This document shows positions 1-50,636 of a stretch of DNA of 64,000 nucleotides, piece by piece; within the stretch, counting starts at the first letter, position 1; the number at the start of each line of letters is the position of its first letter. The notes under the pieces were generated by a model that worked only from the letters and a program-made list of their open reading frames with translations, made no database searches and was not told the origin of the DNA. This DNA comes from Patescibacteria group bacterium. GTDB taxonomy: Bacteria > Patescibacteriota > Microgenomatia > Levybacterales > UBA12049. The stretch is taken from assembly GCA_038063415.1 (NCBI GenBank), contig JBBTVD010000006.1, positions 73,948 to 137,947 on the forward strand. Reading direction: 5' to 3'. The position numbers and the translations under genes are program-made.

Positions 1-1461
1 TTACCTATAGTGCAAGAAGCCACAAGTGTTTTGGAAGAATTTGGTCTAGATTATGATATCAGCATTATTTCTGCACATAGAAATCCAGAAGGGCTTACCA
101 CGCATATTAAATCCGCAGAAGCAAACGGGACAAAACTGTTTATTGGCGCTGTAGGAATGGCAGCACATTTACCTGGGGTTATTGCATCTCAAACAATTCT
201 TCCCGTAATTGGGATACCAATCTTGTCAAAAAGCTTGGGGGGAGCTGATGCACTGTATTCAATTGTTCAGATGCCACCGGGTGTTCCGGTAGCAACAGTA
301 GGTATTAACGGAGCAAAAAATGCTGGACTGTTGGCAGTACAAATATTGGCACTATCTGATAAAAAACTTGCAAAAAAATTGACTGAATTCAAACAAAAAA
401 TGCGGGACGGTGTTGAAAAAAAATCAGCAAAATTACAACAACTTGGCGTACAACAGTATCTGGAGGAAATGAAAAAACCAACGATGCCCGAATCAAAAGC
501 TACACTTACGGATACGGTAACAAATGTTTTGGAAACAATCGATATCCCAGATCTTGGCAAAAAGTATCAAGGCAAAGTCCGCGACTTTTATATTATTGGT
601 GATAAACGAATTACCATAACGACCGATCGACAATCCGCTTTTGATGTTGTTCTTGGATATATTCCTTATAAAGGTGCTGTGCTTAATCAGCTTGCGGCAT
701 TTTGGTTCCAAAAGACAAAAAAAATCGTTCCCAACCATGTTATTGCTGTCCCCGATCCAAATGTATTAATTTCTAAAAATTGCCAACCCATTCCTGTGGA
801 AATGGTCGTTCGCGGATATCTTTCTGGTGTGACAAAAACGTCGGTTTGGTACTCGTATGAAAAAGGGGAGCGAACAATTTACGGAATGAAATTTCCTAAC
901 GGCATGAAAAAAAATCAAAAATTGCCTATTCCGATTATCACCCCAACAACGCACCCCGAAGCAGGAAGCAAGCTTCATGATGAACGGTTAACCCGAGACG
1001 AGATTATTAAACAAAACATTGTCCCGGCAAAACTCTACAAACAAATGGAAGAAGTTTCATTGGCACTCTTTGCTTTTGGACAAAAACGAGCAAAAAAACA
1101 GGGACTTATCCTGGTTGATACCAAATATGAATTTGGTCTCTTTGATGGCAAGTTGACATTGATTGATGAGATTCATACTCCTGACTCCTCACGGTTTTGG
1201 CTAGAGGATACCTACAAAGAACGACTAAAAAATGAACTTGAACCACAAAGTTTTGATAAGGAATTTTTGCGCCTTTGGTATGTACAACAAGGATATAAAG
1301 GAGATGGTACGCCTCCACCAATGCCAAAAGAAATTGCGATAAAAATGTCTCAACTTTATATTGATGCGTATGAAAAAATCACTGGAGAAAAATTTAAAAT
1401 CTTCCCCTATCCGATCGGAGAAAGAATTAGAAAAAACCTTAAACAGTCAGAAATCTTGTAA
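1..1461 (+). CDS. purE/purC: PurE-PurC fusion (N5-CAIR mutase/AIR carboxylase domain fused to SAICAR synthetase), 5' end outside the window
   Basis: The reading frame is open from nt 1, and ORF-track position 10 is a GTG. The N-terminal part has PurE motifs (SAHRNPE, GAVGMAAHLPGVIASQTILPVIGIP, SIVQMPPGVPVATVGING). After a K/E-rich linker, a complete PurC-like domain follows (FYIIGDKRITITTDRQSAFD, GLILVDTKYEFG, IDEIHTPDSSRFW). Confidence 0.75.
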   Translation, partial: LPIVQEATSVLEEFGLDYDISIISAHRNPEGLTTHIKSAEANGTKLFIGAVGMAAHLPGVIASQTILPVIGIPILSKSLGGADALYSIVQMPPGVPVATVGINGAKNAGLLAVQILALSDKKLAKKLTEFKQKMRDGVEKKSAKLQQLGVQQYLEEMKKPTMPESKATLTDTVTNVLETIDIPDLGKKYQGKVRDFYIIGDKRITITTDRQSAFDVVLGYIPYKGAVLNQLAAFWFQKTKKIVPNHVIAVPDPNVLISKNCQPIPVEMVVRGYLSGVTKTSVWYSYEKGERTIYGMKFPNGMKKNQKLPIPIITPTTHPEAGSKLHDERLTRDEIIKQNIVPAKLYKQMEEVSLALFAFGQKRAKKQGLILVDTKYEFGLFDGKLTLIDEIHTPDSSRFWLEDTYKERLKNELEPQSFDKEFLRLWYVQQGYKGDGTPPPMPKEIAIKMSQLYIDAYEKITGEKFKIFPYPIGERIRKNLKQSEIL

Positions 1462-2964: not shown

Positions 2965-4962
2965 ATGAAACAACAACAGGATAAACTCGAAATCTGTAAA
3001 CAAACAAGAATGTTTGCAGCTGATTCTCTTTATAAAGTTCTCAAAAAACTGCTGGCATCTCATAAACCAATTTCTGAAGTAAGACTCCGTGACGAGTGGC
3101 TTACCGAGATGCGTAAAAATAAAAATATCTTCCCAGACGGCTGGTATACACCTCCGCCCTTTGGTATCTCTGTATTATTTGGGGATGATAAACATTTGGA
3201 AAGAATAAATTATAAAAGCTTACGAGAAAAGGACAAATGGCCACGAAATAACGTTTTTCTTAATACGAACAGTGGGATTGCATTTTTTTATATATCCCCT
3301 GTTGATAAAGAATCTGGAATTATTGGTGATTTTGCTATTACGCTCTATTTCGGCAAAGATAAAACTATTCAAAATCACTTTTTAAAGTCATTCACTATTA
3401 ATAAAGAAGTATTTATAAACATGACGATTGGAATGTCCTTAAATGATATAAACCAACTAACATATAAACTTTTACAAAAGAATGGTGTCTCCAGTGATCT
3501 ACTTAGCCCAACTGACCCAACAGGGACTAATTATGGGCATACTATTCCCGCTTCTTATGAAAATTGGAATTCTGAAGAAATAAAAGCTCTCCAAAATGGT
3601 AGTAAGGATTGGGAAACAGCTCTTACAATGATTAGTAAAAAAAGAAAATTTGTAAATGCACAAGAGCCTCTAAAAATTAAACCAGGTATGGCAGTTACCA
3701 TAGAATCAAGACCAGAAGTACTCGATAATCCAAAAATCCCGATGACTTTATTTCATATGATTGCCATTTTTAAAGAAGATGGATCAAAAGAATTGTTAAC
3801 TGGTTTTGACAATCTCTTTACATTATCGGGAATGGATTATATGATAGAGCCAGTGAAAAAACAAAAAATTAGCTATAAAGAATCAGGTGTTGATTATGAA
3901 TCGCTCGACCCTGCAAAGACCCTCGCCCAAAAAGCTGGACAGCAAACAGCAAAACATTTAACCAACTATGGATTTAACGAATTGAGTGATACTCGTGGAG
4001 AATCTGCATTTATTTGGAAACAAAAAAATATTTACATGGCATCTGTCACAGAAAGTCTCGGAACCAAAAATTTAGTCGCCGATGCCATGCGGGAAATTAC
4101 TGGAAAAACGTACTATGATGCAATTGGGTATGATACTGTCGCCTCAGCACTTAATGATCTTACCTCGGTTGGCGCAAAACCCTTAACAGTTTTTGCTTTT
4201 TGGGCAGTTGGGAAAAGCAGTTGGCTTGATGATCTAGACAGAACAACGGACCTCGTCAATGGTTGGAAACAAGCCTGTGATGACGCAGAAGCTACCTGGG
4301 GGGGAGGAGAAACGCCTTCTTATAACGATATTGTTCGACCTGAAGTTGTTGCTCTTGGTGGATCAGTGGTGGGCATTATTAAAACAAAAAAACGATTACT
4401 GCTCGATAAAAAAATAAAGGTCGGTGACAGAATACTTTTCTTGAAAAGTTCTGGTATTAATGCTAATGGCATTTCTCTTTCACGAGCTGTTGCAAAGAAA
4501 TTACCAAACGGATATGCAACTAAGTTAAAGACTGGAGAGATGTATGGAGAAGCAATTCTGGCAAAAACGCATATCTATGCAAAGCTAATTCAAGATCTCC
4601 TTGATGCAAACATCGATCTCCATTATATTTCTAATATCACCGGACATGGACTGAGAAAAGTTATGCGTGGACGAGGAAATTTCACTTATGTCGTCGAAAA
4701 AGTATTTGAACCTCAAGAGCTATTTACGTTGATCCAGCACCATGCTGGAATGTCAGATTATGAAATCTATGGCACATATAACATGGGACAAGACTATGCA
4801 CTCTTTTTGCCAGAAAAAGATATCAAAAAAGCACAACAAATTGTCAAAAAAAACAACTTTGAAAGTCTCAATGCAGGCTATGTTACAAAAGGAGAAAGAC
4901 AAGTGATTATCGAACCCAAGAATATTACCTTTACTGGAGACCGACTACAAGTACGAACATAA
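2965..4962 (+). CDS. Two-domain protein: N-terminal M24 (pita-bread/creatinase-prolidase)-like domain fused to a complete C-terminal PurM-like (AIR synthase-related) domain
   Basis: The N-terminal ~300 aa carry M24-like motifs (GIIGDFAITLYFGKD, NYGHTIPASY, LKIKPGMAVTIESRP resembling PGMVFTIEPG). The C-terminal ~360 aa resemble PurM (ASVTESLGTKNLVA, IGYDTVASALNDLTSVGAKPL, VGDRILFLKSSGINANGISL, NITGHGL). Confidence 0.6.
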   Translation: MKQQQDKLEICKQTRMFAADSLYKVLKKLLASHKPISEVRLRDEWLTEMRKNKNIFPDGWYTPPPFGISVLFGDDKHLERINYKSLREKDKWPRNNVFLNTNSGIAFFYISPVDKESGIIGDFAITLYFGKDKTIQNHFLKSFTINKEVFINMTIGMSLNDINQLTYKLLQKNGVSSDLLSPTDPTGTNYGHTIPASYENWNSEEIKALQNGSKDWETALTMISKKRKFVNAQEPLKIKPGMAVTIESRPEVLDNPKIPMTLFHMIAIFKEDGSKELLTGFDNLFTLSGMDYMIEPVKKQKISYKESGVDYESLDPAKTLAQKAGQQTAKHLTNYGFNELSDTRGESAFIWKQKNIYMASVTESLGTKNLVADAMREITGKTYYDAIGYDTVASALNDLTSVGAKPLTVFAFWAVGKSSWLDDLDRTTDLVNGWKQACDDAEATWGGGETPSYNDIVRPEVVALGGSVVGIIKTKKRLLLDKKIKVGDRILFLKSSGINANGISLSRAVAKKLPNGYATKLKTGEMYGEAILAKTHIYAKLIQDLLDANIDLHYISNITGHGLRKVMRGRGNFTYVVEKVFEPQELFTLIQHHAGMSDYEIYGTYNMGQDYALFLPEKDIKKAQQIVKKNNFESLNAGYVTKGERQVIIEPKNITFTGDRLQVRT

Positions 4963-27148: not shown

Positions 27149-29530
27149 TTATACCTTGTATCTCTTCAATAATAAAGAATTAGTTACGACAGAAATAGAA
27201 CTGCTTGCCATAGCAATTGATGCAAAAATCGGATTCAACAAAATGCCAAAAAATGGATACAGCAGCCCCATCGCTACTGGAATTAAAATGATATTGTACC
27301 CAAAAGCCCAGAATAAATTGAGTCGTATCGTCCGCATTGTTTTTTTAGAAAGGGTGATTGCTTTGGCGACACTACGTAAGTCTTTATTGATAAGCGTTAT
27401 AGCAGCAGCTTCAATAGCAACATCAGTCCCTTTCCCCATGGCAATACCAATATCAGCTACGGCAAGTGCTGGCGCGTCATTGATGCCATCACCAACAAAA
27501 GCCACCAGCCCCTTGTCATTCCCGCGCAGGCGGGAATCTACTGTCATTAATTTTTTAACGATTTTCTCCTTTTCTTGTGGCAATACATCTGCATAGACCT
27601 GTGTAATCCCAACCTGTTTTGCAATTGCATCTGCCGTACGTTTATTGTCGCCTGTAACCATCGAGACCGCTATGCCCATCTGTTGTAATGCAGCAACACC
27701 AGCTTTTGCTGACTCTTTAACCGTATCAGCAACAGCAATCACACCGAGGATTCCTGGATCCCCACCTCCGCGGGAATGAAGAGAGGAGGCGAGCATCATG
27801 ACTGTCTTTCCTTCCGATTCGAGTCTCTGAATTTGTTGATCAACTGTCATTCTGGCTCGTCCAGAATCAGATCCTGGATGCGCTTCTCCTCCAGCTGGCG
27901 GAGCGTTTACCAGGATGACGTCAAGTGATATTTTCTCCATCTCCATCAATCGTCTATTCCCCAACAGTACTCGTTGTTTCTGAATTATTCCTGAGACACC
28001 CTTTCCTGCAATAGCTTCAAACCCCTCGACTTTTTCCAGAGAGATTTTCTCCTCCTCAGCTTTCTTCACAATCGCATCTGCCAATGCATGTTCTGACCCT
28101 TTTTCAAGAGATGCAGCAAGCCGTAGCATGTCATCCTGAACTTGTTTCAGGATCTTTTCTTTATGGATTCCCGCCTCCGCGGGAATGACAAAAGGGATAA
28201 TATCCGTCACCTCAGGCTTTCCATTCGTGAGAGTTCCCGTCTTATCAAAAACAACTGTTGTAATGTTATTTGCCAATTCCAGACTTTGCGCATCTTTGAT
28301 AAGAATCCCAAGCTCTGCACCTTTGCCAGTACCGACCATAATAGCTGTCGGTGTCGCAAGGCCCATCGCGCAAGGACAAGCAATGATAAGGACAGCAACC
28401 GTATTGAGCATGGCATAGAGGAAAGCAGGCTGCGGACCAAAAAGATACCAGATACCAAAGGTAGCAAATGCAAGCATAACCACGATGGGAACAAAATAAG
28501 AAGAAACGGTATCTGCCAGACGTTGAATTGGAGCCTTACTCCCCTGAGCCTCCTGAACAAGTTTAATAATTTGAGAAAGCACTGTCTCTGATCCTACTTT
28601 GGTTGCTGTATAGAGAAATGTTCCGTGTTTATTAAACGTCGCTCCGACAATCACATCACCTTTTTGTTTCTCAACAGGAATACTTTCTCCCGTAATCATT
28701 GATTCGTCAATCGAAGAGGTTCCTTCAAGAATCTCTCCATCAACGGGAATCTTCTCTCCTGGACGAACACGGAGTACATCCCCAACCTGTACCTGTTCAA
28801 TAGGGATATCAATCTCCTTACCATCTCGAAGTACCCTTGCTGTCTTTGCCTGTAATCCAATAAGCTTGGTAATCGCTTGAGAAGTTCCTGCTTTTGCCTT
28901 TGCCTCAATATATCTCCCAAGTAAAATAAGACCGATCACAATCGTCGCCACATCAAAATAGGGCATAATCTCAACACCTAATCCCATAAAAATCGTTGGG
29001 AAAAACGTAACAAAAGCAGAATACCCATAGGCAACGGTAGTACCCAATGCGACAAGGGTGTCCATATTGGATGTACGGTGTTTAAATGCGGAAAAAGCTG
29101 TTTGGTAAAATGCTGCTCCCGCCCAGAATTGTACGGGTGTTGCAAGAAGTAGCTGTAGCCAGAAATTTTGTAGAAATGCTGGAGCCGTCGTCATAAGTCC
29201 AGGGAAGCTCCCCCAAAGAATGAGACCCCCCAACACCAAACTCACAATAACTTTCGTTCGCAGCATGGCTAGTTCATTTTGCTTTTCTTTTGCTTGCATA
29301 TCCTCACTTTTTTCGGCAATCTCCATTGTATAGCCTGTTTTGGCAATGGCATCCGCAAGCTGTTCTGGAGTACAGGTATCGGTATTATACGTAATGGTTG
29401 CTTTTTCCGTCGCCAGATTAACGACCGCATCAGTTACACCTGGTGTCTTTTTCAATGCACGCTCAGTCACACGAATACACGAGGCACAATGCAGACCTTT
29501 GATTGGAAATGATTTTTTAACGTTAGTCAT
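27149..29530 (-). CDS. copA: Copper-translocating P1B-type ATPase carrying four in-frame hairpin-repeat insertions
   Basis: N-terminal HMA domain (GLHCASC), CPC (ACPCAMGL), DKTGTLT and [12 protein letters not shown] motifs are all present. The ORF is intact at 793 aa. The extra peptides [59 protein letters not shown] and [11 protein letters not shown] coincide with the repeat elements. Confidence 0.9.
27515..27539. repeat. GTCAT-hairpin repeat unit inside copA (gtcattcccgc-gcag-gcgggaatc)
   Basis: 7-bp stem with a 4-nt loop. In the copA frame it is translated as [11 protein letters not shown]. Confidence 0.7.
27748..27785. repeat. Degenerate GTCAT-hairpin repeat unit inside copA (...ccacctccgcgggaatga)
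   Basis: It shares the ctccgcgggaatga arm with the unit at 28166-28189. In the copA frame it is translated as [12 protein letters not shown]. Confidence 0.5.
27846..27919. repeat. Composite GTCAT-hairpin element inside copA (gtcattctggctcgtccagaatc + gatcctgg...ccaggatgac)
   Basis: The first unit is identical to 38265-38287. In the copA frame the whole element is translated as [28 protein letters not shown]. Confidence 0.7.
28130..28189. repeat. Two GTCAT-hairpin units inside copA (gtcatcctgaacttgtttcaggatc ... gattcccgcctccgcgggaatgac)
   Basis: The first unit differs by 1 nt from 38226-38250. In the copA frame the pair is translated as [19 protein letters not shown]. Confidence 0.7.
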
Positions 29531-30332: not shown

Positions 30333-30408
30333 GTCATTCCTGCGAAAGCAGGAATCCAGCTTGTTAAACTCTTTTTATTAGCTAGATCCCCGCATTCGCG
30401 AGGATGAC
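30333..30408. repeat. Two GTCAT-hairpin units in the DUF305/cupredoxin intergenic gap
   Basis: gtcattcctgcgaaagcaggaatc lies at 30333-30356 and gatccccgcattcgcgaggatgac at 30386-30408. Confidence 0.65.
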
Positions 30409-30426
30409 AAAAATACATAACAAGTG

Positions 30427-47793: not shown

Positions 47794-48483
47794 ATGAACA
47801 AGGTTTCGTTGATTATTTGCATTGCGGTGGTAATTCTCTTTGGAGCGATCCTCTACTTAAGCCAAGCAAATAGCTCGTCTCAATCAGCCAAACAAGTTCC
47901 GACTCTGCCGCCTGAAGCAAACTTTTTTATGGCAACAAGATCCGCACAACAACAAACGCAAACCCAACAGCAACCACAGCAGCAGCAACAACAAGTCCAA
48001 GGACAACAAACGCAAACTGACCCAAATGCTCCTGTCTTTGGGGTTGAAGAAGGGGTGAAGGCCTCATATTCTGCGGTAATTAAAACAAGTAAAGGCTCTA
48101 TTACTGTCACGCTCTTTGGTGATCAAGCACCACGAACTGTCAAAAACTTTATTCAGAAAGCAGAGGCCAATTTTTATAAAAATCTGACCTTTCATCGGGT
48201 TGAAGACTGGGTACTGCAAGGTGGAGACCCCAAAGGCAATGGAACAGGCGGTGGGATGATCCAGACAGAACTCAATCAGGTTCCTTTCACGACGGGATCA
48301 CTGGGGGTCGCTCGTAGTAGTGATATCCGGGTATCCAATGACGCGCAATTCTTCTTTACTAAAACTGATGCCCCTTGGCTTAATCAGCAATATACGAATT
48401 TTGGCATGGTGACTGAAGGCATGGATGTAGTGAATGCAATGAAACAGGGAGATAAAATACTCGGAATAACGGTGAGTGAATAA
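47794..48483 (+). CDS. Membrane-anchored cyclophilin-type peptidyl-prolyl isomerase with a poly-Gln linker
   Basis: N-terminal TM helix, a Q-rich linker encoded by a CAA/CAG simple repeat at 47945-48015, and a cyclophilin core (FHRVEDWVLQGGDPKGNGTGG). Confidence 0.8.
   Translation: MNKVSLIICIAVVILFGAILYLSQANSSSQSAKQVPTLPPEANFFMATRSAQQQTQTQQQPQQQQQQVQGQQTQTDPNAPVFGVEEGVKASYSAVIKTSKGSITVTLFGDQAPRTVKNFIQKAEANFYKNLTFHRVEDWVLQGGDPKGNGTGGGMIQTELNQVPFTTGSLGVARSSDIRVSNDAQFFFTKTDAPWLNQQYTNFGMVTEGMDVVNAMKQGDKILGITVSE
47945..48015 (+). repeat. CAA/CAG trinucleotide simple repeat encoding a poly-Gln linker
   Basis: caacaacaaacgcaaacccaacagcaaccacagcagcagcaacaacaa... lies inside the cyclophilin gene. 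Confidence 0.6.
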
Positions 48484-48639
48484 TCTTTATTGGCTAGTAT
48501 AACAACAACATTATGAGCAGATTAGTTGAGGGGCTTAGAGGGCTGAAGGAAACACTACTCGTGGGGGGGCAAAATCGCTACTAGTACGAATTATGACAGA
48601 GATGTCCCACCAGAGGCTTATGATGCCAACGTAAGAAAG

Positions 48640-49206
48640 ATGAAAAGAGAAGCCTTAGCAACAGAAGTAGCCACTGTGGTAGAGAGTTATATCCCACATG
48701 TACGCGGAGATGAAGCTGATTACCATGTTTTGGATATAGCCGCAGGAACTGGTATCGTTTCTCAAGCATTAGCAGGAGAAGGGTTTAACGTTACTGCAAC
48801 AGATGTTAGCACTAAAGCGTTAGGGGCTTTACGCCAACAATCACCAACTATTGCCACAGAACAAGCAGATATGAACCAGGGATTACCATTTGCCGACAGT
48901 TCATTCGATGGTGCTACTTCTGTTTGGGCAAATCGCTTTATAGCGGATACTCCTTTTTTCTTAGAGGAAGTACATCGTGTTTTAAAAGAAGGAGGCGTAT
49001 TTATTTGGCCAATATTTCCAACTGAAATCCCCTTCTGGAAAAAGGAACAAGGACTGAGACAACCAACAAGACCAGGAAAGCTATCTGAACTTGCTCAAGA
49101 AGCAGGATTTTCTGGAATAAAGACTGTACGAAGAGCTGACATAGATGACACTGCTGGAAAACTTCCTTTTCATAGTAGAGCAAATTATCTGATCCTAACA
49201 AAATAA
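48640..49206 (+). CDS. Class I SAM-dependent methyltransferase
   Basis: Motif I VLDIAAGTGIV and motif II NVTATDVS are present. 188 aa. Confidence 0.7.
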   Translation: MKREALATEVATVVESYIPHVRGDEADYHVLDIAAGTGIVSQALAGEGFNVTATDVSTKALGALRQQSPTIATEQADMNQGLPFADSSFDGATSVWANRFIADTPFFLEEVHRVLKEGGVFIWPIFPTEIPFWKKEQGLRQPTRPGKLSELAQEAGFSGIKTVRRADIDDTAGKLPFHSRANYLILTK

Positions 49207-49267
49207 AAAAGGGCTTTACCACCTAAAATTGGAGAATGCGCGGTTGGCTTCTGCTTGACGAACCCTC

Positions 49268-49924
49268 TTACATCACTTCTTTTCTCCCCACTTCTTTTGC
49301 TTTCTCTCTAAAAAAACTCTTAAGCTCTTCCAATGACAGTGGCTTAATCATCTTGGGTAGATAGACAAAGTCCTCTACCTTCAAAAAATCTGCTGACAAA
49401 AGAAATGGCTCAAGCTTTACTTTAAATTTTATTCGTACTCCTTCAATTAAATCCCATATACTGAATTTCTGTAAAAGAAAATACAGATCAACAAAATCCT
49501 TCACTTCATCTCGCTGTGTAATGGTCAATAATTTATTTACTGCAATATCGGTAAGGCTATCAACTTTTACTCCATCGAGAAGTTGTCCTTTCTCTAATCG
49601 AGTATAAGGATAATAAGCAAAATCAACTTTGAGTTCGTTCTTATTGGAAAATACCAGTTGATAGATATACATTACTTCAACAAACTGTGATTGAAACTGA
49701 AACTGCTGTTTGTTGCTCCACTCAGTCATGAGGGTAAAGAGTATCTGATTATCAAATTTCTTCTCGCTAAAAAGATCAATATCATCTGATTCTCGATGAT
49801 GCAGATAAACCGCGCTTAACGCAGTACCTCCGGTGAAATAAAAGTTTTCTTTACAAAAAGCGTTTTCTTTTACTTCATCCAGAATGATTTGTTGTTCTTT
49901 GGTGAGGTCTGGTATTTCCCCCAT
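49268..49924 (-). CDS. AbiEii/AbiGii-family nucleotidyltransferase toxin (DUF1814)
   Basis: 218 aa with N-terminal FYFTGGTALSAVYLHHRESDDIDLF, matching the GGTAL...R.S.DIDLF signature of AbiEii toxins. Confidence 0.6.
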   Translation of the reverse strand: MGEIPDLTKEQQIILDEVKENAFCKENFYFTGGTALSAVYLHHRESDDIDLFSEKKFDNQILFTLMTEWSNKQQFQFQSQFVEVMYIYQLVFSNKNELKVDFAYYPYTRLEKGQLLDGVKVDSLTDIAVNKLLTITQRDEVKDFVDLYFLLQKFSIWDLIEGVRIKFKVKLEPFLLSADFLKVEDFVYLPKMIKPLSLEELKSFFREKAKEVGRKEVM

Positions 49925-50109
49925 AATAACAGTTCAAGCAACCTTTTCTGTAAGGTAAAAAGGTGCAAACGATGCCAATATTTTTTTACCTCAGCAAGCT
50001 TTATCTTGCTTTTTCCTGGACCGTAATTAATCTGCCGCTCCAGTACATGTATTCTCCCTTGCTCTGTCTTCTCCAGTTCTTTCTTATCATAATCCCACAG
50101 CGAACTCAT
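49870..50109 (-). CDS. Small ORF upstream of the AbiEii gene, a possible cognate antitoxin/partner
   Basis: 79 aa from the ATG at 50109 (the ORF-track start at 50124 is a GTG). It overlaps the toxin start by 55 nt in another frame. A TATAAT box lies 7 nt upstream. No recognisable HTH, so this is weakly supported. Confidence 0.2.
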   Translation of the reverse strand: MSSLWDYDKKELEKTEQGRIHVLERQINYGPGKSKIKLAEVKKYWHRLHLFTLQKRLLELLLWGKYQTSPKNNKSFWMK

Positions 50110-50162
50110 AAGGTTATTATACACTATACGCTAATAGAAAAGTATGCAAATTGGAGTTTAGT

Positions 50163-50636
50163 TTACCACCTAAAATTGGAGAATGCACGGTTGGCTTCTG
50201 CTTGTCGCATAGCAAGATCTCGCTTACGAACTGCTTCACCAAGGTTTTGTGCTGCTTCAGTAAGTTCTACAGCAAGTTTCTCAGCAAACGTATGATACTC
50301 TTTGTTTGAGCGCTTGCGTGCGGCTTCAATAATCCAACGAAGAGCAAGAGCTGTACGACGCTCATGTTTAACTTCAACGGGAACCTGGTAGTTAGCTCCT
50401 CCGATACGGCGAGCTTTTACCTCAACCTTTGGTCCGACATTTTGCATTGCCTTCTCAAAGAGCTTGACTGGATCCTCACCTTTGTCAGCAATAATTTGCA
50501 TCGCACCATAGACCTGTGCTTGTGCAACAGTCTTTTTACCATCGTGCATGATGTAATTAATCAGCTTTGCGATAAAAATACTATTGTACATAGTATCTGG
50601 AGCTATTTTTCGTTTTTGGATTTTTGCGTGTCTCAT
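50163..50636 (-). CDS. rpsG: 30S ribosomal protein S7
   Basis: 157 aa beginning MRHAKIQKRKIAPD and ending RAFSNFRW. Confidence 0.95.
   Translation of the reverse strand: MRHAKIQKRKIAPDTMYNSIFIAKLINYIMHDGKKTVAQAQVYGAMQIIADKGEDPVKLFEKAMQNVGPKVEVKARRIGGANYQVPVEVKHERRTALALRWIIEAARKRSNKEYHTFAEKLAVELTEAAQNLGEAVRKRDLAMRQAEANRAFSNFRW

Follow-up and report, generated by a model that had tools for sequence, protein, structure and literature searches.

An AbiEii-type gene cassette between two copies of the rpsG 3' end in a Patescibacteria genome, and the direct repeats that flank some of its relatives

How addiction modules move without a plasmid, phage or transposon is largely unexplained, and the one footprint described for such movement, long target duplication, has up to now been associated with restriction-modification (R-M) systems. 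Insertion with long target duplication was reportedly described for R-M gene complexes by Nobusato et al. in 2000 (Gene 259:99). Furuta, Abe and Kobayashi (2010) subsequently documented R-M systems inserted with target duplications of 46-423 bp and without mobility genes, mostly in naturally competent species, such cases being recognised by repeats longer than 30 bp, an insert smaller than 20 kb, the lack of a mobility gene and an empty site in a related genome (PMC2853133). A review covering both R-M and toxin-antitoxin systems describes long target duplication for the former only (PMC3874152), and our literature searches turned up no account of it for AbiE, for other protein toxin-antitoxin cassettes or for Patescibacteria. 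Here we describe a two-gene cassette, encoding a DUF1814/AbiEii nucleotidyltransferase and a small partner protein, which lies between two copies of the 3' end of rpsG in a 64-kb stretch of a Patescibacteria genome (contig JBBTVD010000006.1, positions 73,948 to 137,947; hereafter the window, with all coordinates counted from its first nucleotide).

The DUF1814 toxins MenT1, MenT3 and MenT4 add nucleotides to tRNA acceptor ends, stopping translation, and the antitoxins of DUF1814 toxins are diverse; MenA1, which is 68 aa long, binds its toxin directly (PMC7450476, PMC10435456). Our reading of the window locus is that a selfish module of two genes, a toxin and its presumed antitoxin, inserted together with a host gene terminus by means of host recombination and without a recombinase of its own, to which we assign a probability of roughly 0.55. 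The module would have entered the Saccharimonadia-like Patescibacteria genome at the junction of the convergent rpsG and methyltransferase genes, leaving the last 46 nt of rpsG on both sides.

The direct repeat was delimited by a repeat search, a 46-mer search and translation. Its copies, at 50162-50207 and 49215-49260 on the minus strand, are spaced 947 nt from start to start and are identical at 44 of 46 positions, with a longest identical block of 25 nt. Copy 1 is the working 3' end of rpsG, made up of the last 14 sense codons (RQAEANRAFSNFRW), the stop codon and one further nucleotide. Copy 2 is an orphan rpsG terminus of 15 codons including the stop, without a start codon or gene body, positioned 7 nt past the toxin stop; the convergent methyltransferase gene has its stop codon 9 nt away. 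A reading made from the window's sequence alone (the sequence-only reading) had noted a 43-bp duplication at 49215 and 50162, matching at 42 of 43 positions with a synonymous arginine difference; this was borne out over the first 43 nt, and the extension to 46 nt adds a second synonymous arginine mismatch, the two being CGA/CGT and CGT/CGC, so that both copies encode RQAEANRAFSNFRW-stop when read on the minus strand. That reading also proposed looking for the repeat elsewhere. Within the window, the 46-mer was found at two sites only when up to three mismatches were allowed, with none expected from 100 shuffles, and no other direct repeat within 8 kb, anywhere in the 64 kb, is as long or as good.

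These data bear directly on an explanation of the repeat by chance matching, by some functional motif in the rpsG region or by faulty assembly, for which the metagenomic origin of the assembly is the only argument we can offer. Against a chance match stands the expectation of zero for the 46-mer. The 1151-nt stretch from the end of rpsG to the end of the methyltransferase gene is 100% identical in four independent assemblies (L001-L004) from one Hainich groundwater population, and a fifth contig (L171) is identical across the 625 nt it covers; hence the structure is not an assembly artefact. A duplicated rpsG tail was present at none of the 81 other S7 loci examined, which argues against a functional motif and led us to reject the idea that such tails are a general feature of rpsG loci. 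This explanation is accordingly excluded, and the duplicated rpsG end at the cassette is confirmed as a real observation.

Between the two copies lies a segment of 901 nt (49261..50161, minus strand), characterised by its sequence, open reading frames (ORFs) and composition, which contains a promoter and two overlapping genes only. Its GC content is 35.5%, against 43.0% for rpsL-rpsG and 41.4% for the methyltransferase gene. A leader of 52 nt (50110..50161, minus strand) carries the cassette promoter, as judged from the sequence, a promoter scan and a comparison of 21 loci: a TATAAT box at 50116-50121, preceded by TG, stands 6 nt ahead of the ATG of the first gene, and the scan also gives an overlapping TTTGCA-16-TATAGT site. 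This first gene is the partner ORF (49870..50109, minus strand), predicted from the ORF list and family comparison to encode 79 aa from its ATG; the nucleotidyltransferase gene (49268..49924, minus strand; 218 aa) overlaps its last 55 nt in another frame. Across the 21 loci, a -10 box, usually TGnTATAAT, is found 6-12 nt before the partner ATG in nearly all cases (50110-50124 in the window), which implies leaderless or near-leaderless translation of the first gene; the mRNA of the family is therefore likely to have no leader or a very short one. The promoter alone is conserved, and a search for conserved termini or inverted repeats of the cassette found none.

The presence of a DUF1814/AbiEii gene and a small upstream ORF between the repeats, as the sequence-only reading had it, agrees with the Pfam, PADLOC and ORF results. 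The 218-aa protein matches PF08843 over residues 20-211 (5.9e-20; 72.7 bits against a cut-off of 22.5) and is matched by 17 PADLOC AbiEii models, the best at 2.2e-13, whilst the motifs FTGGTALS and SDDIDLF can be read straight from its sequence. In an alignment of 38 family members, including the window protein, G32, S46, D48, D50, K99, D101, K131, R138, K142, D143 and D146 are invariant, the C-terminal residues being assigned to DUF1814 motifs III and IV by inspection only. The family profile reaches the PDB chains 4o8s and 4ok0 (E = 2e-4). There are 1825 homologues, nearly all 218 aa long and nearly all from Patescibacteria. By analogy, the protein is presumed to be a toxin, which, if it acts as the MenT/AbiEii enzymes do, would block translation by adding nucleotides to the 3' ends of tRNAs.

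The relatives of the partner amount to 59 representatives among 1.84 billion proteins, and it has a conserved core of around 65 aa (WDYD..L.KTE.GRI..LER.INYG......IKL.EVKKYW..L.L...Q.RLLELL.WGK). Searches at E values of up to 10 gave it no match in Pfam or PADLOC and no meaningful one in NCBIfam, and a phmmer search against all PDB chains, among which the presence of the MenT1-MenA1 complex is unconfirmed, gave a best E value of 1.4. A single-sequence model comprises three helices (pLDDT 74), and Foldseek, run with this moderate-confidence model, returned nothing at E below 4. In the position upstream of the toxin gene where an AbiEi/COG5340 antitoxin, with its N-terminal winged helix and C-terminal domain, would be expected in an AbiE pair, only the 79-aa ORF was found. 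The possibility that partner and toxin are one frameshifted gene was rejected, given that the homologues are steadily 218 aa long and that the 55-nt overlap is kept in the closest relatives. By comparison with other DUF1814 systems, the partner is most likely the antitoxin. In the long ORF of a distant family member, L116 (3594-4016), the partner appears with an ArsR-type winged helix fused at its N terminus (HTH_5, 1.9e-5), an arrangement that would suit an autoregulating antitoxin.

Partner and toxin genes form a family of cassettes across the Patescibacteria. Of the 87 loci examined, nearly all have a partner homologue ahead of the toxin gene, the two overlapping by 55 nt in the closest subfamily and by less in distant ones, and the neighbouring genes differ from locus to locus, including type IV secretion genes, ilv genes, YcaO/Wzy genes, PIN/Phd and rplJ-rplL, amongst others. 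P0045 occurs on 24 contigs, and the ten places listed for it share one neighbourhood. Short contigs showed no terminal overlaps indicative of circular or tandem cassettes of unit length; two contigs of about 0.92 kb, considered as candidates for such units, proved merely to be truncated. In L141, a second, divergent gene with an AbiEii domain (376-981, minus strand) lies about 450 nt upstream of the repeat-flanked cassette.

The flanks of the cassettes were compared by aligning the 250 nt before the partner ATG with the 250 nt after the toxin stop in 51 non-redundant loci, counting as a hit any same-strand local score of at least 18. Flanking direct repeats were detected in ten loci, or nine once L092 (see below) is set aside. 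The same score was reached by 0.12% of 2,550 flank pairs taken from mismatched loci, by two of 341 mock segments of equal length placed elsewhere in these loci and, in inverted orientation, by one of the 51; using flanks of 700 nt gave a similar outcome, plus two loci on shorter contigs. The repeats are 23-158 nt long and 68-100% identical, that of L100 being perfect (23/23). Start-to-start spacing is 912-1129 nt in every case, with only the two genes enclosed, the upstream repeat ending 16-145 nt ahead of the ATG and the downstream one beginning 0-32 nt past the toxin stop. Frequently the repeated sequence is the 3' end of the gene next door, which may face the same way as the cassette or against it, and the intact copy is on the side of that gene: it is upstream and co-directional in the window (rpsG), L134 (an S1-domain gene) and L113 (a dockerin gene), and downstream and convergent in L090 (Wzy_C) and L118 (panB). 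Given that repeats of adjoining host sequence are present in around one fifth of loci, they are the mark that insertion of this cassette family leaves. In L141, L086, L092, L100 and L170 no overlap between the repeats and an Rfam family was found, so structured RNA was rejected as their source, and a protein-level search for more diverged repeats recovered none beyond those found in the DNA.

The sequence-only reading had interpreted the locus as a site-specific insertion lacking an integrase. No integrase is indeed present, as the insert consists of two ORFs, neither of which encodes a recombinase. The proposed site specificity is not supported by the related cassettes, the targets of which differ (rpsG, Wzy_C, panB, the S1-domain gene, the dockerin gene and non-coding DNA), as do the edges of the inserts. 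Both results matter for an alternative in which the cassette is a non-autonomous element akin to a cis-mobilizable element (CIME), with the repeats representing attL and attR, a site-specific recombinase supplied in trans, from elsewhere in the genome or from a helper element, and the attP of a circular form mimicking the end of rpsG. The restoration of a conserved gene's 3' end by direct repeats is in keeping with this; so is divergence confined to synonymous sites, expected under selection on a gene-end mimic carried by the element, and the identical core of 6-8 bp needed by tyrosine recombinases is present even in repeats of 68-74% identity. L086 (from about 3732) and L087 (from about 237) are approximately 100% identical rightwards for more than 4.9 kb, encompassing the cassette and type IV secretion genes, and unrelated to the left of the left edge of the upstream repeat, which therefore marks either a point of natural recombination or the place where a larger element ends; a sharp break in synteny beside type IV secretion genes resembles what is seen with conjugative elements. 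However, there is no recombinase in or beside the insert, and unrelated targets, repeats of 23-158 nt and variable edges would call for a different integrase in almost every case. No integrase or resolvase was found among the 25 listed of 36 Pfam families in 34 ORFs adjoining repeat-bearing cassettes. Close relatives of the cassette are also absent from the viral contigs of IMG/VR; this database holds only relatives of 23-28% identity, without a mimic of the S7 terminus, and carriage by phage was rejected. We consider a CIME-like origin unlikely.

The constancy of the enclosed DNA bears on a related proposal, that the cassette is the last remnant of a larger island or prophage, from which the integrase and the other cargo were deleted whilst the gene pair was kept because its loss is lethal. 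Addiction modules do outlive their vehicles, and the att-like repeats and rebuilt gene end would fit an origin by integrase. Random decay would, however, leave variable lengths of DNA between the repeats, whereas these always enclose two genes only, and no intermediates with extra genes were observed among about 70 loci; such an origin is improbable.

For coding repeats, differences between the intact and orphan copies were counted by the Nei-Gojobori method, giving the proportions of synonymous (pS) and non-synonymous (pN) sites that differ. In L134 there are 28.8 synonymous and 13.2 non-synonymous differences (pS about 1.2, which is saturated; pN 0.13); L090 has 19.5 and 9.5 (pS 0.85, pN 0.11), L118 six and one (pS 0.44, pN 0.02), and the window two and none (pS 0.23, pN 0). 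The corresponding pN/pS ratios are 0.11 in L134, 0.13 in L090 and 0.04 in L118. As a null model, we took a duplication in situ after which the orphan drifts neutrally and only the intact copy is constrained, which leads to an expectation of about 65% non-synonymous changes. This was rejected for L134 (P = 1e-6), L090 (P = 8e-4) and L118 (P = 8e-3), and for the five coding loci combined (P = 1e-8). The paucity of non-synonymous changes in these three loci means that the orphan was recently part of a working gene and that the copies are different alleles; they look like two functional alleles, rather than a fresh duplication in decay. Furthermore, a strong terminator hairpin follows the intact copy in L134 and is not repeated after the orphan, a pattern that fits the joint arrival of gene end, terminator and cassette.

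It is against this evidence that a classical long target duplication has to be weighed, in which the 46 resident nucleotides were duplicated in place, for instance through staggered breaks filled in around captured DNA, with the copies drifting apart afterwards. The structure corresponds to the published description of R-M insertions, down to repeats of 46 bp at 44/46 identity over gene 3' ends (PMC2853133); the window copies are 96% identical, with two differences that do not reject the model, and the perfect repeat of L100 is compatible with it. The orphans of L134, L090 and L118 nevertheless carry too few non-synonymous changes for such a history, at the probabilities given above, and L134 has a terminator between its intact copy and the cassette. 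We regard duplication in place as distinctly unlikely. The suggestion in the sequence-only reading that the element supplied a replacement 3' end fits the synonymous pattern of these three loci and the terminator of L134; the part that concerns the window itself is less secure, as the window alone fits in-situ duplication too.

Insertion with a host gene terminus, our preferred account, would proceed as follows. The cassette would arrive within DNA of a related genome, accompanied by a short stretch of its neighbouring gene's terminus, and host recombination would pair this incoming piece with the resident terminus. This might occur by Campbell-type integration of a circular molecule comprising the cassette and one repeat, or by a double crossover in which the orphan copy serves as a portable homology arm, the only one available downstream, as might happen after natural transformation; either the circular or the double-crossover route would give the observed structure whichever way the target gene faces. 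One copy of the repeat would rebuild the gene and the other would remain as an orphan. Loss of the cassette by recombination between the repeats would be penalised by post-segregational killing, so that footprints would persist around addiction modules. The repeat itself, the genes and base composition of the insert, the frequency of flanking repeats with its statistics and the allele-like divergence in sister loci are all observed; that the pair acts as toxin and antitoxin, by which pathway it recombined and in which direction it was transferred are inferred, as is, no empty site having been found, the mechanism of insertion. Saccharibacteria are naturally competent (PMC10633639). A broader proposal, that the whole family is a recombinase-free mobile element which employs an orphan host gene terminus either for the homology it brings along or as the one repeat of a circular form, and is installed by transformation and kept by killing, is put forward tentatively, as the less probable extension of this account. 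Were it true, the 'long target duplications' around addiction modules would be donor and recipient alleles, not true duplications.

Several observations weigh against insertion with a host gene terminus. In the collections searched, neither an empty site nor a donor locus was found for any of the cases. The window pair considered alone, with its two synonymous differences, fits plain in-situ duplication (P = 0.12), and RecA would be working at its lower limit on a repeat of 46 nt in which no more than 25 consecutive positions are identical. The copies in L134 and L090 are 68-74% identical with identical blocks of no more than 11 nt, which makes homologous pairing implausible, and these two loci need either another joining step or a later replacement of one allele. 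Around 80% of cassette loci have no flanking repeat. L092 was dropped as an insertion repeat, as it is a hairpin present in three copies beside a Y1 transposase gene, and the breakpoint shared by L086 and L087 could equally mark the att site of a larger element. Finally, the partner belongs to no recognisable family, and the toxicity and neutralisation of the pair are predictions.

In L092 the perfect hairpin (TCGAGGTTGAACCTCGA) is found at 2905-2923 (with one mismatch), 3654-3672 and 4677-4695; the copies enclose first the Y1 transposase gene, which is IS200-like, and after it the cassette. A MazF/PemK gene follows closely, and the cassette may be a passenger of a hairpin-ended element. This arrangement was seen in L092 only, and the window junctions have neither a hairpin nor an inverted repeat of the kind expected of an IS200/IS605 or repetitive extragenic palindromic (REP) element.

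Comparison with relatives was used to examine the host side of the insertion. In the window, rpsG (50163..50636, minus strand; Pfam PF00177, 8.3e-54) encodes a ribosomal protein S7 of 157 aa according to the ORF list, and is the last gene in an rpoB-rpoC-rpsL-rpsG run on the minus strand. The closest S7 protein is 83% identical, and the best match to the methyltransferase 52%. The closest genomes, Saccharimonadales-like metagenome-assembled genomes with S7 proteins 75-83% identical, retain rpoC-rpsL-rpsG; the cyclophilin gene is also retained in L006, L007 and L172, with lepA beside it in the latter two. The interval between rpsG and the cyclophilin gene (L005 6474-8380, L006 4313-6075, L007 6474-7619 and L172 4690-5542) holds different genes in each relative, variously a LanC-like gene, a HicB-like antitoxin gene with a 419-aa ORF, two small ORFs, or a CrtO-like gene, and is a hotspot of gene turnover. 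At the rpsG locus of these closest relatives the cassette, the methyltransferase gene and a second rpsG terminus are all absent. The absence of the cassette there, the dip in GC content and the occurrence of the gene pair in unrelated neighbourhoods uphold the insertion proposed from the sequence and mark the cassette as foreign.

The same comparison did not supply the empty site that the sequence-only reading had hoped for: the relatives carry a single rpsG terminus followed by other genes. They are also too diverged to polarise the two window copies, and a 142-aa S7 variant (P0143), considered as an empty-site candidate, comes from the same strain with the insertion. A reconstructed empty site would have rpsG converging on the methyltransferase gene with 9 nt between the stop codons, a tight layout shared by L005. 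A separation of rpsG from fusA and tuf by the insertion was not supported, as the cassette-free loci L005, L006, L007 and L172 likewise have neither gene after rpsG; the absence of fusA and tuf is therefore a trait of the lineage and not an effect of the insertion. No EF-G or EF-Tu was found among the large ORFs of the window that were tested.

On the other side of the cassette, the convergent gene (48640..49206, plus strand) encodes a class I S-adenosylmethionine-dependent methyltransferase, identified through Pfam and an alignment of homologues. Its C terminus is intact and aligns to the end of the homologues, so that the insertion event did not truncate it, and the gene marks the native downstream side of the insertion site; beyond it lie the cyclophilin gene and then lepA. 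The methyltransferase gene is itself frameshifted, with pieces at 48513-48585 and 48640-49206 and a break at a run of seven G residues (48563-48569): the piece MSRLVEGLRGLKETLLVGG... resumes in another frame as ...KIATSTNYDRDVPPEAYDANVRK-MKREALA, and the joined pieces match the N termini of homologues of 230-245 aa. The G run is identical in the four assemblies, and the frameshift could represent a pseudogene, a phase-variable gene or a systematic homopolymer error. In the N-terminal part of the cyclophilin-type isomerase, a CAA/CAG-rich stretch (47947-48023) encodes a run of glutamines. Elsewhere in the window, a GC-rich palindromic motif (TGGATCCCCNCCTCCGCGGGAATGA...) is present in three copies (27755-27786, 28164-28195 and 30383-30414), and a motif like it sits after the L096 cassette; it may represent a REP-like element that these genomes carry.

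What is new here is a protein cassette of the toxin-antitoxin type with an R-M-like footprint at about one fifth of its loci, found in a phylum whose members have tiny genomes and few of the classical mobile elements, and in which natural competence is known. Of most interest are the pattern across the family and the allele-like divergence of the repeats, a testable clue that incoming DNA brings its own copy of the gene end, through which movement without a recombinase itself becomes testable. The locus also shows that a cassette can settle at the very end of an essential gene, that of a ribosomal protein, without harm, and more than 1,800 homologues are enough for a decisive comparative study.

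Integrative elements, such as genomic islands, integrative and conjugative or mobilizable elements (ICEs/IMEs) and their CIME derivatives without an integrase, insert at the 3' ends of tRNA or protein genes and bring a replacement end; they share with the cassette direct repeats of which one completes the target gene, and a copy on the element side that is compatible with coding. The cassette differs from these in having no integrase and no common target, in the variable length and edges of its repeats and in its size of less than 1 kb. Its resemblance to R-M insertions with long target duplication is closer: each is an addiction-type module without integrase or transposase, bounded by repeats of host sequence that vary in length (46-423 bp for R-M systems, 23-158 nt for the cassette family) and often overlap the 3' ends of genes, and the hosts of both are for the most part naturally transformable. 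The window repeat of 46 nt at 44/46 identity exceeds the length used to recognise the R-M cases, those of Haemophilus influenzae likewise including 46 bp at 44/46, and the insert of 901 nt is small, a complete two-gene module without a mobility gene. However, the cargo here is a nucleotidyltransferase toxin pair, to which a role for a DNA break made by restriction is inapplicable; three of the coding cassette loci have differing functional alleles, unlike a duplicated resident sequence; and the R-M cases were defined by comparison with empty sites, whereas the cassette is known from occupied ones.

As for the gene pair itself, AbiE systems share with it the DUF1814/AbiEii toxin domain, the N-terminal motifs and a two-gene operon in which an overlapping partner lies upstream. 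The window toxin is at the short end of this family with its 218 aa, and the 79-aa partner has no detectable AbiEi/COG5340 domain or winged helix; as it lacks an AbiEi antitoxin, the cassette is not a canonical AbiE pair. In MenT1-MenA1 of Mycobacterium tuberculosis, by contrast, a DUF1814 toxin is accompanied by a short antitoxin of 68 aa that is unrelated to AbiEi and has no DNA-binding domain (PMC10435456), much as the window toxin gene is preceded by that of a 79-aa partner with a core of about 65 aa. The partner has no detectable similarity to the PDB chains searched, in which the presence of MenT1-MenA1 is unconfirmed, and thus homology with MenA1 was not established. The mechanism worked out for that pair is nucleotidylation of tRNA 3' ends, blocked by direct binding of the antitoxin, and by analogy it is MenT1-MenA1 that the cassette would most resemble in how it works.

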